From: Harriotta raleighana
Taxonomy: Eukaryota
Length of the DNA stretch: 64,000 bases
Direction: 5' to 3'
NCBI GenBank assembly: GCA_050575255.1
Contig: JBNZDD010013718.1
Location: 2,472,113 to 2,536,112 of the forward strand
Position numbers and translations under genes: made by a program. Numbering within the stretch: the stretch's first letter is position 1; each line of letters starts with the position of its first letter. Under the pieces are notes generated by a model. That model saw only the letters and a program-made list of their open reading frames with translations. It searched no databases and was not told the origin of the DNA. Positions 29,105 to 57,660 of the stretch are shown here, one piece after another.

Positions 29105-29183
29105 CACATCCCGAACAATAGGCATTGTCTTTTGTCGCCGCAGATCAGGCATGCTGTCGATGCCATAGAGTATGCTTCCAGGC
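29105..29183 (-). CDS. UNC13C: UNC13C coding exon, 79 nt ([26 protein letters not shown])
   Basis: tttag|G ... GTG|gtgagt; phase 2 to 0; conserved Munc13 motif [11 protein letters not shown]. Confidence 0.95.
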
Positions 29184-38650: not shown

Positions 38651-40561
38651 AGGGTAATTGAGAGATGTTGAAAGGAAATAAAAAGAGTCAAAGAAATGTG
38701 GACAAAGAAATGTGATTTTTTTTTAGTGGGGAGTGGGGTGGGGTGTGGTGGTAAGTTGTGAAGGGTCCAATTTTTAATAATGTCACAAGTGAATGTTTGC
38801 ATATTTTCTTCCAATTTTTAATGGATTTATCTCCAGCTCAGCAGTAAAATGAGAAACATTGCTGTACTGCTTGATCCCCTCTAGTCATATGAGCAATAAA
38901 AATAAAATGAAGTACTGTAACTATTAAATTTCATCCAGTTGTTTCATACAGATTAAAAGTCTATTTTTTTTACTATTAACCTTGTCATAATGGACAAATA
39001 TTGTCCAATATATGATTTAGATCATCAAACTGAAGTCACGTTACCAACTCCTTCAAAGTTATCATACCTGTAGTTATATCTGACACATGTGATAAAGAGA
39101 TCTGATTTCCTTAATAGTAATTGGTACACTTAAAATATTCATTGTTAATTTTATAATATTGCAGTTCGTATTACAGCTTTCCCTATTGCAAAAAAAAACC
39201 CAGTCCCTTAACCATCAGATAAAGTTCAGCCAAACTTTCCAATTCGGATTTCATCACGTACAAATTCAACACCATACAAAGAATGGTGACCCACTTGTGA
39301 TTGAGGAACTCTAAATCCAAGCAGACGAGTGACATGCAGCAACAACACACTTTTGGCTCGTTCATGGCTTTGGGATCATGAAAATACTCAAACAACATTA
39401 TTTATAAGCTCTTTCGTGTTCCATTTTCATTTAATGTTCTCAAAGAGCCCTTTGGAACATCAGAAAGCTTTTGGTGGAGAGTGGGGAGTGAGTGTACACG
39501 AAGAATGAACACTGATAAAACAACCTTTTCTATTTCCGTGAGTTAGTACCATAGCTTAAAATCCATTGTATAGCCATTTGTGTTCAAAAAGATGAACACA
39601 AATATGTAATGGGCACTCTGTTTAACAATGGGAATTCAGTCAGTGGGCAGGCTTTGCAGAACAAAAAACATAGTTTAAAGGTCTGAACAACAAAAAAGAA
39701 AAGATAAGATAAACACCAATATTATCCGTCAGAAATTGAAATGTTAATAAAAATCAAAACCAGGCATCCCTAGTCACCTGTAGTAATATTGTAATAATAA
39801 TGCTAATGACCCTTACATCTTATCATGTCACAAACTGCTTCACAGAATATACTGTAAAGTGAATTGACCGTATTTTTAATCGGCGAAACAAGTAGTTAGA
39901 AAGCTCCTAAGGCAGACCCAGTTGCTTAGAAGAAGTTTATCTACAATGAAGCACAGTGACATTATTGATGGCAGAAGTGAAAATTAGTTTGCTTTAGGGA
40001 GAAACATTACTGCTCTTGAGTAAAATTTGTGAAATATCTTGTCTAAATGTTGACTCACCCTCCTGTAGGCTTGAAGCCGGAAAGTAGGGCAACATCCAAC
40101 ACATTTCCACTTCCTTGATGAGCCTTTAATAAAAGATAAATAAATAGAAAAGGTCACATTATGAAGTGCTTAAATAATGGAAAAACCTATGTCCTCACAT
40201 TGCACATTTTATCGCACTTACACTACATGTGAAATATTTTATGTGTGATTGTGCTTGCAAAGGTTAATTTTCAACAATAAATATCCTGTTCACATATAAT
40301 GCATTGTGTACTGAATGCAGAACAAGTAATGGCAATTTCATGTAGTTCTGAGGGTGAGATCCATGCGAGACAAGTGGGACATGAAATGGGTACATTCAAT
40401 ACAAAATACCACATTCAAAAATGCAACAAAATTCACATGATTCTTTATGAAAGGTGAAACAGCAATTTAGAACCTGTTTATCCAAAGAACTGTTATCTGT
40501 AAAAGAACCAGGGAGAGGAGGACATAATACGTTAGATAACCAATTTTCTAAAGTAAGGTAC

Positions 40562-51756: not shown

Positions 51757-54188
51757 TAAGAGTGATCAACTTTGGTTACGTTTCAACTGATTCGTTCTGA
51801 AACTATCATTTCTGAAACTGTCAAACTGGATTTAACATCATCTCAATCTGTAAGAACTTTACATTCCAGCCCTAATTGAATCAGTGGTTGTGGGTCGATA
51901 AATGAAACGGGGGAGAGGGGGTAAACACCATTGCACTGTATCCTCAGTCTCACTAGAAAGCGAACCGATTTAACCTGAGGTTGTACACCAAGCACTCTCA
52001 GGATAGATTGGTCTGGAGATGGTAAGATCAAGGCTGGACGAGACTTAATAAAGTTCCATAGCTAATGGCAGTTTCTGCAGTACATTAATATAAGCATTAT
52101 ATTTTCATGATGTTTATGTCAAAGAACTCACTCTCTTAATTGAAAACTTGAAATAACAAAATGGATTCAGTCTACTAAAATACCCTAATTTATCTCTTAA
52201 TCTCCTAAAGTCAAGTTCCTTCATCACCAAAGCTAATCAAAGATGATTTATTTATCACCAAATCTCTATCATTCAAGCACGACCTATTTTCCTACCAAAG
52301 ATATCTCAATCTCCAACCTCCCCCCAACCCATCCCCTATAGCAAGATCACAACCACCATTAGGTTTGCGGAGGATTTGATCATCTAAATAAATAAATAAC
52401 TTCATAACCTCCAAAGAGATTCCAAACCACACATTTATCTAATTTGTCTTGAACATCAATTATACTCAATGAGAAAGATGCTCCATACAGTCACAAGTCT
52501 TTAAGGGACAAAATGTTGCATCTAATCTTGTCTCAAGAGGCTTGTTGTTTTCCAACCCCAAGCTCTGTGCTCACAGTCGAAGTCAAATGGCTGATGATAT
52601 TTGCATTTCTATATTTCCAAACAATCTAGAGACCTGCATGGTGGCGTTAATTAATCTACTTCTATGCACTGAAAATAAGTGCATAGAAGTTCTATGCTGA
52701 GCTATATAACTTACAAGCCCTTGTATTATTCTTATTATAACAGTAATATCCTATGTGCATATATATATATTAAATAAATAATGTACACTGGAACTTGTTT
52801 TGATTCTTACAGATATGACAATAATGATAGCTTTACTACTCAGGTAACAAGCACAAATGTAACTGCAGATATCAATAAGATTGTGCGAATAACTCCATGC
52901 AGTATATAGCAAAAGAAAAATTAACTCTCGAAAAGTAAGCGCTTGCATGTAAGTAATTTATGTACTGTCTATTGATAAACTCCTAATACTTGACTCGTCA
53001 AGCTGACAATATACTGGCTGAACATATTTATGTATTCATCCATTATGCCTAACTCGCCACTCCATATAACTCTTCACTTTGAGTCCCTTTCCCTTGGAGT
53101 GACACGTTATCAGCCATTCACTGTAAGCTGCGGCATACAATTCGTGAAAATAAAAACAAAAGTGGAATTGTAGCTGTGCAAAGCATTATGTCCTCAGCAA
53201 AGTAGTTCAGCACTGTCCTACTGCAATGCTACTGTGGTGATCTGCCACAATATAGGGCCCATAAATCAGAGGGAAGAACAAGGCTGAGGTTCTGCTCCTG
53301 ACCTAACTTGGTTAACATTCAGAAACTAACACCTGATTTTAGAGCTCATTTGCACATGCAAAGATCTCTAAATCTGTGTGCTCTTTTTCAACCAGGCGTA
53401 CATGCAATCCTGAGCAAGAAGCATAAATCAGGCCTCCTATTCCACATTGCTCTATAATCAATTCCTCCACAGTATATTCTGTGAAACGCTTTATGAGACT
53501 TTTCAATAATGTGATAGGGTGCTATGTAAAATGCAAGGATTATTGTTATTATTCATAAGAGATCGGTTGCTACATAAATTAGTACAACTTGTTACCTGGC
53601 TTACGTTCGGTACTTTTAGCAGAAATATTTGGTCCTTTTTGCAATATTTACTTTAAAAGAACAATCTAAAGGTAGAAATGATCAAGGTGACAATCATCAT
53701 GTTTGTCTTGAAGAAAGACAATCTATTCTGTGCAATTTTGTAAATCTCAGCATTAGATCTACTCTGGAGAACAAAAGCATGCTGGGTTAAAAAAAAAACT
53801 CTGCGATTTTTGAATTTAAAAGCCCATTAAAGCGATACAATTATAACATTCGACACACATTTTGGCCGTTTAAGTTCCTTTCTGGCCGTATTTCTGTTAA
53901 ATGTCAATTCTGTTAATACAGTAGTCCAGCGACATACACCGAATCCCATCAATTGGGTGAACCAGCTTTTGGGATTCTTTCACTGAACTAGACAGAAAGA
54001 GATGCAGAAAATAAATCCAGAAATGATTCTATTGTAACCACCTCCCATGTTATTTCCAAAAACAGCGGTCACTAAGAGCAAGAACTACGCACAGCACAAA
54101 CTTCACTGCCTATCATTCTATGCCACATTTACATTCACCTTTAATTAAAAAAAAGTTGGATCTAACATTATTCCTGTATTATTAGTAC

Positions 54189-57100
54189 CTCCAGTTAGTA
54201 TCCCCTCTTCCACTTGTTGTTTGTATGCCCTGAACGCAGCTTGTTTGAATGTAGACCTCATTTTAAGTTTCTTTGGAGCTTCAGTAAGTTCCTCTGTAGC
54301 TTGACTTTCAGTGGGTTGTTCCTTTTCACCTATGACTTCAGATGCAGACTCAAGGATATCTTCAGGCTCAAGGATATCTTCAGGCTCAATGATATCTTCG
54401 GCTTCTATCATATATTCAGACTCTAACACATATTCAAGCTCTATCATATATTCAGACTCTATCGCATATTCAGGGTCTATTATAACTTCGGCTTCGATCA
54501 TGTCTTCTGACCCCAATGTGTCTTCTGACCCCAACATGTCCTCCGACTCGAACACTTCTTCGGGCTCAAAGTCTTCGATAATGCTGTTATCATAAGGCAT
54601 CTCGTAGCAGCCCTTGTCTAACATTCGAACACTCAGTTCTTCTGCGGGCTCATATGACGGTGACAAGTCTTCGTTTTCTTTAAGGAACGTTTTGTTTTCC
54701 AGTTTTGCGAGCACTTGCTCCATCACCTCGACATAATCGCTTTCATTCTCCCCGGCGAGTTCACTGCTCTCGTCGTCTTCGGCTCTGTAATAGTAAGGCT
54801 CGTAATACGCATCAGAATCAAGAGTGGTGCAGGAGGCGTCCGCTGTAGATTGAGACAATGTCCTGAAGCGACCAGTTGGTGATTCTCCTTCTTCATACCC
54901 GCTCAGACTTTGGGTGCTTCTGGAGTCCATTTTGTTCCAGACAACCTCTAAGGCAGATTTAGCTCGTTGAAGGGTCGAGCCAAACTTTTCAAAGCTGAAA
55001 CCGGTGTCGGACAGATCGATACTCAGTCGGCTGTGCCAGGTTTTGCCAGGAGTCACCATTGGTTCACTCTCACCTTGCAGCTCACTCTGACTCCGACATC
55101 TTAGCGTGGGTCGGTTTTGATAATGGTCGTTGGAATACGAATTATTGTAGGAGTTGTAGGTGCTGTCCCACTGAGCTTGGGCTGTCCCAACAAAGTCCTG
55201 GCATGCTGAAGGGACACCATCGAGTGTCGTGTCATACTTTTCCGCTTCATAGTCCAGACCTGCGGCCTGATAACGTTCATCGAAATCGGGTGTGTAATTC
55301 AGAACATTTTGGTCGGATGGACTATTGCCTTCAGAAACAAAGACATGTTGCGAAGTATCTAAACCAGAGTCCAAACCTTGTGGTAACGGCTGCCATTCTT
55401 TCCATGGTGAGAGATCACCTTGCAAAGACAACTGGGAGTCGCTGTAGTGACTTTGGTCTCCTGACGCACAGAGTATCCCGTTGCTCACCCCACTGTCGCC
55501 CGTTTCAGTGTTCTCTACCTCGTTTTGTTCGACGTATTGTTGGTCCTCATAATCGTACTGCTGATTATCGGGGATGCTAACCCACCCAGACGCCGCCTCT
55601 TCCTTTCCTCTTGACCAAATATCTTTCTCTGAAGTTGACACGACCGAGGAACCATCAGCCCTGGTGAAGTATTGAGTATCTGAAAATTCTTCAGAGTACG
55701 ATATTGACTGGCAGAGTTTGGAAAAATCCGACTCTGAACGACTGAGTTTGGGCGTCGAGTAATCCCCTTGTAGCGTCCAGGAGGGTGTCGCTTCGCTGTA
55801 ATAAGGCTCTATCTGTTTCTGAGGTTCTGCAAAAGCTGAAGAGTGAAAGCTGTTGTCCGTGCACAGTTGCGTTGAGTTCGAGTACGAACTGCAAACCACA
55901 GTCCGGTCAATGTTCACAAGATTGTGAGATTCTGCCCCTTTATTCGTGGAGATGGACAGTTTTTCGAAAAACGTTTTAGAACTAATTTCAAAACTGCGGC
56001 TATTAAAGTCTTCTTCTACCTCCTTATCGCTGGAATCAGGTGATCCCCACTGATGCCTTCTGAATTCCTCATCGTCCGTTGTTAATTTCATATTCATGCT
56101 TTCGTACGTCTGAGATTTGGGGGGAAGCGAATATTCTTTTCTGCTGTGGAGGTCGTTAAAGATTTCAGTAGAGATTCCAATGCCGGAACCTTTCAGCTTG
56201 TAACACTTTTTGAGAATTAAATCTCTATTTTGTGGACTGTCAAAATACACAAGAATAGGACGGGGCTTGGCATTAGCACAGTCTCTCCGTTGCCCTAACC
56301 TGTGAACAAGTTCCATTTTAACAGTTGTTCGAGCATCCGTAAGCCCTAACCTTTCTTCTACGATTCCATAAATGACATTTTCCGTATTCTCATGGAGCTC
56401 CTCGGGAACATTGATGAATCGCAGGCTCACTTTGCTTCCTTGATAGCTAATTTGTCTAATGTAGTCGTGTATATCTCGGGTTTCCCTTCTGGACTGGACA
56501 AATCCGGAGCGGAGTTGCTCAATTTCACTTTGCACCACCTCCACACTGCTGGAGATTTCGTCGATCGACTGTTTAAGGGAATCAACATGCCCCCGTAGTT
56601 CAGTCAGCTCGGTTTCTATTTGACTTATGCCTTGGAGTTCCTTAAAGATCATCTCCATGACATCGTGGGTTTGACTGATGCAGCCAGTGGAACTGAACGA
56701 AGGCTCCATTGCGCTCTTTTGTTGCATTCGACCCGTTCTGTCCAAAGACTTGCTCCTAAAACCGAGCGTTTTTTTCCAACTGCTCATTTCCGTCTCTGAG
56801 GAGATGCATTCTTGACTTTTTTTCCACTTGCGAAGTTTGCGCAGGGCGCCAAGTCTCAGCAAAGTACGTTCTCCATCTGAGCTTCCATCAGACGGAGCGA
56901 GGCTACTGACACTTTTCCTGTTCCTCCTCACTGGCATCGTCCGAGACCGGCGCTCCTTCCCTTTATGCGAAATGCTCACTTCGTTCAATGATTCAGAGGT
57001 GCCACTATCAACAGACCATACCTCTTGGCATAAGCCCTCATTATTGGATGGAATCACACTCTTCTGCAGTCCATTAGCTATTGCCACCCGGTAACTCAAT

Positions 57101-57375
57101 GTGGGAGAAAGCGAATACTCAGTCTTCCCTTCCTCTTCCTCAACAGATAGATTGCGGGCAGATTGGCATTTTGCTATTCTCCTGACTGTGCTTTTTAGAT
57201 TGGATGAAAATTTCTGATTCCGAACTGGATTGACCTGCTGTGTATGCTTTGGCTGCTTCTTGTCTAGGTTGCTCTCTTTCTTTTTTGTTGTGTTTGCTTG
57301 TTTCCGAGCAAACATTCCTTTGTAAAGCTTTAAGATGTAGGACTCGAGGAGATTTTTCAAAAGAGAAGAAACCAT
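54189..57375 (-). CDS. UNC13C: UNC13C (Munc13-3) large first coding exon, 1062 codons plus 1 nt of the unique N-terminus
   Basis: ATG at 57375 (MVSSLLK..., cf. recalled mammalian MVANFFK...); conserved blocks YSLSPTLSYRVAIANGLQK, SLAPSDGSSDGERTL, THDVMEMIFKELQGISQIETEL, TPKLSRSESDFSKLCQS, LQRAKSALEVVWNK; donor GGAG|gtact, phase 1. The ORF-track TTG start (57387) and read-through to 54145 are not the real ends. Confidence 0.95.
54346..54570 (-). repeat. Coding 18-nt tandem repeat, ~12 hexapeptide units (E-[SPA]-E-[DY]-[MIV]-[IL])
   Basis: EPEEVF ESEDML GSEDTL GSEDMI EAEVII DPEYAI ESEYMI ELEYVL ESEYMI EAEDII EPEDIL EPEDIL. Confidence 0.9.
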
Positions 57376-57660
57376 GGAGGGAGGCAATAGGTATCACCAA
57401 TTCCTAGCAAATACCAGCGTTAAACGAGACCATGAGAACTGCAAGCATTTAAACATGAACATCTTTTTTTCTCTGCATTAAAATAAAAGCAACAAGCTGC
57501 GTGCGTCCTACAAGTTAGCAAGCAGGTAGCATCTGTAAGCTATATATGTTGCACGCAGCCAATTGCCAGAAAGCAGTCAGCCTGTATTTGCATCAGACAG
57601 CAGTTATAAGTCCTGGGGGAAGACCAACAGCACTGAATTGGCTGGATATTCCATGTCTGC
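57376..57660 (-). other. UNC13C: 5' UTR portion of the large UNC13C exon
   Basis: Acceptor tactaatgactttttttcttcttctgtaacaacgcag| at 57660 with branch-point-like TACTAAT. Confidence 0.6.

Follow-up and report, generated by a model that had tools for sequence, protein, structure and literature searches.

LINE ORF1 sequences have been kept as host exons or genes in several lineages, as in Lyosin (L1 ORF1-MYL4), the ORF1 fusion isoforms of RFX5, NUP42 and USP4, and L1TD1 (PMC12129022). Lyosin consists of a coiled coil and an RRM without a C-terminal domain (CTD), and is a sauropsid, testis-expressed gene that was repeatedly lost, whereas L1TD1 is eutherian (PMC12129022). In the same study, Kitao, Ichiyanagi and Nakagawa (2025; PMC12129022; bioRxiv 10.1101/2024.04.25.591049) reported that a canonical exon of UNC13C is likely homologous to L1 ORF1; they read it as coiled coil plus RRM, by AlphaFold modeling of mouse residues 223-404, and it matched L1-11_DR. 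They stated that the exon was not analyzed further, and their passages on it give no age, donor clade or function. UNC13B has no occurrence in the text of ten of their supplements; the figures and the bioRxiv supplements lie outside this count, and an earlier mention there is possible. In the UNC13 field, Kawabe 2017 (PMC5379939) showed that ELKS1 binding needs residues 145-187 of bMunc13-2 and that this binding sets the active-zone dwell time of the protein. A coil 52% identical (for the mammalian pair) was described in Munc13-3, of which residues 1-304 do not bind ELKS1; the passages concerned put the shared motif down to parallel evolution in N-termini that are otherwise unrelated, and contain no shared RRM or transposon link (PMC5379939). 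A further point of comparison is Arc, likewise a retrotransposon structural protein put to synaptic use (mentioned in PMC12129022). Arc is a stand-alone, capsid-forming gene of LTR gag origin, whereas the module described here is a piece of a non-LTR ORF1 joined to a priming factor.

The window analyzed here is a 64,000-nt stretch of the Harriotta raleighana genome. A coiled coil and an RRM are encoded at 56161-56658 on the minus strand, with every motif named in the original prediction present, and form residues 246-411 of a 1082-codon stop-to-stop frame (54145-57393). The putative first coding exon (54189..57403, minus strand; 3215 nt) has an ATG at 57375, a putative acceptor at 57403 and a phase-1 GT donor after 54189, both borders being taken from the sequence alone; its size is thus about 3.2 kb, and not the 3.5 kb first proposed. 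Two minus-strand linker exons, of 23 nt (40474..40496; phase 1 to 0) and 65 nt (40059..40123; phase 0 to 2), and the first exon common to the three UNC13 paralogues (29105..29183, minus strand; GIDSMPDLR) link it to the C1-C2B-MUN core without breaking the frame, and a small exon of the same phase as the 65-nt exon lies at the same place in UNC13B. The best 120 of 443 protein matches were all named UNC13C or were unnamed with the same Pfam domains. Among the matches listed, Callorhinchus UNC13C was closest (94% over the region), followed by sharks and rays (86-89%) and then bony vertebrates (72-78%). From these matches and the downstream exons mapped within the window, the gene is identified as UNC13C. 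The block is present in chimaera-like, shark, ray and bony-vertebrate UNC13C, in agreement with the predicted capture before the jawed-vertebrate radiation. Its orthologous position and amino-acid conservation over a long time in a host gene are likely those of a domesticated transposon exon.

All four of the best sequence matches of the module in the PDB were human L1 ORF1p (2ykp, E = 5.4e-6; RRM-only 2w7a, E = 7.9e-4), the first match to anything else came at E = 0.21, and a 12-sequence profile matched human L1 ORF1p in the PDB at E = 6e-7 (32.5 bits). PF02994 was the top Pfam family, as anticipated, yet scored 20.3 bits against a cut-off of 22.4. In structure comparison, L1 ORF1p filled the top seven Foldseek rows, but the matches were weak, with E values of at least 7e-3. 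The AlphaFold model of the module had a mean pLDDT of 69 and was confident in the helix only. An RRM-only model (pLDDT 52) gave generic ferredoxin-like matches, and VIA-align with this model returned many ferredoxin-like folds at Z < 8, with ORF1p not listed; with the whole model its list was filled by generic long helices. The single RRM (56191..56430, minus strand; LRFINVPE ... HRLG ... KPRPILVYF ... RDLILKK) is directly preceded by the coiled coil (56446..56661, minus strand), and the non-canonical RRM, the motif order and the predicted trimer resemble type II ORF1p (human L1 ORF1p, PF02994). The module differs from these proteins in having no CTD, RhxxhE motif, ORF2 or element context, and in lying inside a host protein of ~2200 residues; no ORF2 (APE plus RT) was found downstream of it, and the frame goes on as the UNC13 N-terminus. 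A PF02994 search of the same genome gave no match and was uninformative, as the control matched nowhere either. Together, the PDB and profile matches and the free relatives that precede APE/RT ORF2s (see below) uphold the proposed ORF1p ancestry, and we consider it very probable that the module is of LINE ORF1 origin.

A search with a combined UNC13B and UNC13C profile gave 1382 matches. Among the best 150 were 42 proteins bearing the coil signature of UNC13 (8 full and 34 partial ones) and 108 non-UNC13 proteins. The best of the latter were mostly unnamed and ORF1-sized, the top ones scoring 60-78 bits versus 32.5 for human L1 ORF1p. Profile-profile comparison of the module with these free relatives gave a probability of 99.8% (E = 1.4e-27), and the free-relative profile aligned with L1 ORF1p right through the CTD. 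In a reciprocal genome search, one free relative (P0143), whose full-length alignment spans coil and RRM (profile positions 6-170), found this exon only (E = 2.5e-17). No relatives were found with P0143 alone in metagenome contigs or with A3 in viral contigs, and leads from the ESM Atlas were unnamed chordate clusters and one cluster carrying Baculo_FP_2nd. Metagenomes yielded 77 loci of the ORF1 family; where at least 800 nt of downstream sequence was available (n = 46), an APE motif was detected in 31 and an RT motif in 19. RVT_1 was found in 12 of the 13 ORF2 frames scanned, the 13th being an APE-only fragment.

The five best-scoring classed loci share one ORF2 type (L036 type), in a biased sample seeded from the top matches. 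The L036 ORF2 matched human ORF2p at 52 bits, compared with 484 bits for an L1-like control (L050). By these scores and in this biased sample, the nearest free relatives are type-II ORF1s that belong to real non-LTR elements and fall outside the L1 clade, contrary to the L1-type kinship first suggested. The L036-class ORF2 has no CCHC knuckle and is the only class that matched L2-like repeats in stretches of this genome; an RT tree of 17 rows, with two long branches, did not resolve. We take the motifs of the L036-type ORF2 to be those of the CR1 group, and the donor was probably a member of this group. The label is soft because the loci were seeded from top matches, 47 of the 77 were unclassed, and three ORF2 classes occur with one ORF1 type. 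Type II ORF1s are documented in the CR1 and L2 lineages (PMC4120745), and the CR1 and L2 elements of present-day vertebrates are reported to have esterase ORF1s only (PMC13343379), in keeping with a donor that has ceased to be common in vertebrates. The pairing of one ORF1 family with three ORF2 classes (loci L035-L111) would fit an exchange of ORF1s among LINE clades. Of the 40 ORF1-like relatives scanned, 8 (P0163, P0168, P0169, P0171, P0181, P0196, P0200 and P0203) end in a NADAR domain (PF08719) that follows the coil, RRM and CTD, and we know of no described ORF1 architecture of this kind.

The genome search with the module returned two matches among five scored candidates, the second being 35% identical (E = 1.2e-22). 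A recent or active element insertion was considered and rejected, as no ORF2 is present and both genome matches, the best candidates, lie in UNC13 genes. The second copy lies within an 886-codon frame, which is followed ~6 kb downstream by the common exon of a gene with a complete UNC13 core; its best match was Callorhinchus UNC13B, and C2A-type exons are located further upstream. Thus the module is not specific to Munc13-3, as had been assumed, since UNC13B carries it too. In UNC13B it resides in the brain-type exon and was found from cartilaginous fish to mammals, with full modules in, among others, basking shark and emu (genes unnamed in both), Anolis and horse. Further B-type proteins listed from mammals and sauropsids (at least 118) had the coil signature in 115 of 118 and the RRM motif in 110 of 118. 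The coil was kept and the RRM gone in 30 B-type representatives, and the five of these that were looked up (Amia, Coilia, Electrophorus, Perca and Xenoophorus) were all ray-finned.

Similarity between the UNC13B and UNC13C N-termini is restricted to the module, which occupies the same position before the common exon in both genes. No module was detected in 118 kb of the 123-kb contig with the UNC13A-like paralogue (assigned by elimination). In an RRM-only tree (91 columns; bootstrap not fully settled), six UNC13B and six UNC13C rows formed one clade versus 39 free ORF1s, with support of 99/97, making one capture likely before the two genes duplicated. We take this duplication to belong to the vertebrate genome duplications; pairwise core identities, with three of four queries anchored, did not single out a sister pair among UNC13A, UNC13B and UNC13C. 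A single capture before the UNC13B/UNC13C duplication is the simplest reading and, for the jawed-vertebrate sequences compared, quite likely the correct one. Separately, UNC13B contains a 3041-codon open frame between its C2A-type exons (L015; G000:C13731:11975055-11984177), which is a giant alternative exon, and duplicated exons in UNC13B (G000:C13731:11934232, 11937505) and the UNC13A-like gene (G000:C13251:50961-52030) are probably assembly artefacts.

The original prediction placed the module in UNC13C in place of the C2A N-terminus. Three intact C2A exons were however found ~46 kb upstream of the module exon (G000:C13718:2577546-2577447, 2576083-2575966 and 2575460-2575337), encoding most of the C2A domain, with AG/GT sites, matching phases and no stops, and with 24/39 to 25/32 identities to UNC13B. 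The Callorhinchus UNC13C model (P0130) starts with the same exons, whereas a first exon and connecting exons for them were not found in the present genome. These features suggest a C2A-bearing (RIM-type) Munc13-3 isoform in chimaeras. Given the intact C2A exons, and given that UNC13B has both N-termini, the module appears to have been added as an alternative start, with no replacement of C2A, and the most fitting description of the ORF1 exon, in UNC13B as in UNC13C, is that of an alternative start internal to the gene. Nor does the size of the intronless exon indicate a retro-origin, as had been argued, because the ORF1 likeness covers only ~165 of 1062 codons and large exons are also used at Drosophila Unc13 N-termini (PMC5379939).

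The part of the module with a described function is its coil. Residues 145-187 of murid UNC13B proteins (rat was not among the matches listed) correspond to it, and the homologous segment of the window (56521..56649, minus strand) is identical to Apodemus UNC13B at 21 of 43 positions. By this correspondence, the published ELKS1-binding anchor of bMunc13-2 is the ORF1-like coil, and the expectation that no functional description existed did not hold for the homologous coil (PMC5379939). In UNC13B the coil is 71% identical from mouse to platypus and sauropsids, versus ~20% in the flanks; in UNC13C, residues 241-300 are 91-97% identical to bony vertebrates, versus 24-43% just downstream. Neither N-terminus has a part that is better conserved than the coil. 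The identity of the coil with the ELKS1 anchor argues that the block, which is predicted to form trimers, likely serves synaptic anchoring and likely not RNA packaging.

We therefore favor, with a probability of roughly 0.6, the reading that a CTD-less type-II ORF1 was captured once, as an alternative first exon in the common ancestor of UNC13B and UNC13C, and that its coil became a protein-binding, predicted trimeric active-zone anchor and not an RNA chaperone. The donor, a non-LTR element that probably belonged to the CR1 group, would have landed in an early vertebrate unc-13, in the intron that separates the C2A-type 5' exons from the common core. Its ORF1 coil and RRM would have stayed in frame, and its CTD and ORF2 would have been lost. 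Since the duplication, bMunc13-2 is held at active zones by binding ELKS1, as Kawabe 2017 showed, through the site that we identify with this coil. Munc13-3 would have retained a coil that is longer and almost invariant, together with an RRM closer to ORF1. It would likely trimerize and bind a different scaffold partner; the Munc13-3 bait that failed to bind ELKS1 stopped at residue 304 and did not include the RRM. For its module we infer anchoring as the function. A bolder version is distinctly tentative: an RNA-packaging retrotransposon trimer, domesticated no later than the early vertebrate genome duplications, might provide a second, RIM-independent anchoring of the vesicle-priming machinery, with bMunc13-2 and Munc13-3 as pre-assembled trimers held by the ORF1 coil, through ELKS1 in one and through RNA (bound by a still-active RRM) or another scaffold in the other.

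An anchor-only model leaves the basic and conserved C-type RRM unexplained. A doubtful alternative shares the same origin and proposes that the Munc13-3 RRM still binds RNA or another polyanion, so that the three RRMs of a trimer would form an RNA-binding or condensate-forming arm. Consistent with this, the coil and the KPRP motif were kept in all 120 UNC13C proteins listed (best 120 of 443), the aligned sequences hardly vary at HRLG, the Arg after it and KPRP, and the RRM of UNC13C has been conserved since the split of cartilaginous and bony fishes. The net charge of C-type RRMs (0 to +5) also resembles that of free ORF1s (median +5), whereas B-type RRMs range from -9 to +1. The ORF1 homology nevertheless ends in the linker that follows the RRM (LKGSGIGISTEI; 56161..56190, minus strand), with no CTD after it: at >15 bits, a CTD was found after the RRM in none of 119 UNC13C tails and none of 109 UNC13B tails, compared with 39 of 84 held-out free ORF1s. 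L1 ORF1p binds RNA by the joint action of its RRM and CTD (PMC5940361). The lack of a CTD and the coil-only UNC13B of ray-finned fish thus argue against L1-style RNA packaging, and the former weakens the case for the RNA binding first envisaged. The RRM is also mostly missing in two gadid UNC13C models (P0134 and P0283), which share an in-frame loss with the coil kept; this is either a real deletion or a gene-model artefact.

The anchoring model as we favor it includes a homotrimer, and the coil of ~10 uninterrupted heptads has a predicted three-helix core. Ile, Val or Thr occupy 8 of 10 a positions and Ile or Val 6 of 11 d positions, and Ile/Val-rich a and d layers favor trimers. When three copies of the module were modeled, the only stoichiometry run, the score was 0.71 versus 0.30 for the best of three controls, with contact agreement between runs of at least 83% and partner pLDDT of at least 77. 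In calibration, which used two-copy jobs unlike the three-copy run, 21 of 30 solved pairs passed the score mark but none of 23 single chains did; for eukaryotes the counts were 17 of 29 and 0 of 30. The model may also echo the solved L1 ORF1p trimer. On this basis the module is predicted to form a homotrimer via its coil, which keeps the proposed trimerization as a prediction. The canonical RhxxhE trimerization motif was not found in the coil, which contains two inverse-polarity ExxxxR pairs at g/e (inverse g-e salt bridges); the motif is missing in three of the five free relatives checked too. In a coil-only test of ORF1 ancestry, forward and reversed profiles scored medians of 5.4 and 5.7 bits (forward higher in 16 of 29), so the ORF1 origin of the coil rests on its position. 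Both results would suit a scenario, improbable in our judgment, in which the RRM alone came from a LINE and the coil is a host-evolved heterotypic helix, pairing for example with ELKS-type coils, with no homotrimer; ELKS1 does bind via its own coiled-coil region, at an apparent ratio of 1:1.69 (PMC5379939). Against it, the coil reaches right to the RRM as in type-II ORF1s, the P0143 alignment covers both parts, and the a/d layers and the trimer model point to self-association.

A further reading, in which the module descends from an ancient coiled-coil/RRM domain of the cell and resembles ORF1 through convergence or host-to-element transfer, is most improbable and largely refuted: the Pfam score under its cut-off and the generic ferredoxin-like matches of the RRM-only model lean that way, but no cellular RRM family occurs among the Pfam or PDB sequence matches, the relatives are diverse ORF1s before APE/RT ORF2s of three classes, and the module was not found in the stretch compared for the UNC13A-like paralogue and is reported absent from Drosophila (PMC5379939).

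The likeness itself is not new, having been in print, unanalyzed, for UNC13C (PMC12129022). Searches of the literature, with most subscription journals outside their scope, found nothing joining Munc13-3 to a retrotransposon or UNC13B to ORF1p, and nothing joining Munc13, LINE-1, ORF1 and the active zone; for UNC13C and ORF1p they returned the versions of Kitao et al. and a cancer review. In the literature searched, we found no earlier report of a copy in UNC13B, of the coil being the ELKS1 site, of a non-L1 donor or of the loss pattern. Unlike Lyosin and L1TD1, the UNC13 module occurs in two paralogues throughout the jawed vertebrates, has its best relatives outside L1, and contains a coil with a mapped protein partner. 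If our reading is true, it would be an older domestication of a LINE ORF1 than either (PMC12129022), and an ORF1 coil tied to a mapped host partner would be a presynaptic counterpart to Arc. It would also explain the source of the 'unrelated' bMunc13-2 and Munc13-3 N-termini, which have ~165 residues in common, beyond the short coil, and it would make Munc13-3 targeting and the role of its N-terminus directly testable on one defined folded module.

The remainder of the UNC13C exon is not uniformly of low complexity, as had been supposed. Frame residues 151-210 (window 56764-56943) and 781-900 (window 54694-55053) are further conserved islands, with 78-88% identity and 70-79% identity to bony vertebrates, respectively, and neither had a family match. 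A basic amphipathic stretch in the sequence of the exon end (54211..54258, minus strand) is presumably the calmodulin site of Munc13-3. Between these, window positions 54345-54560 encode an acidic tandem repeat of a six-residue type (EPEDIL, ESEYMI), which is mostly missing from the Callorhinchus protein and is a lineage-specific expansion.
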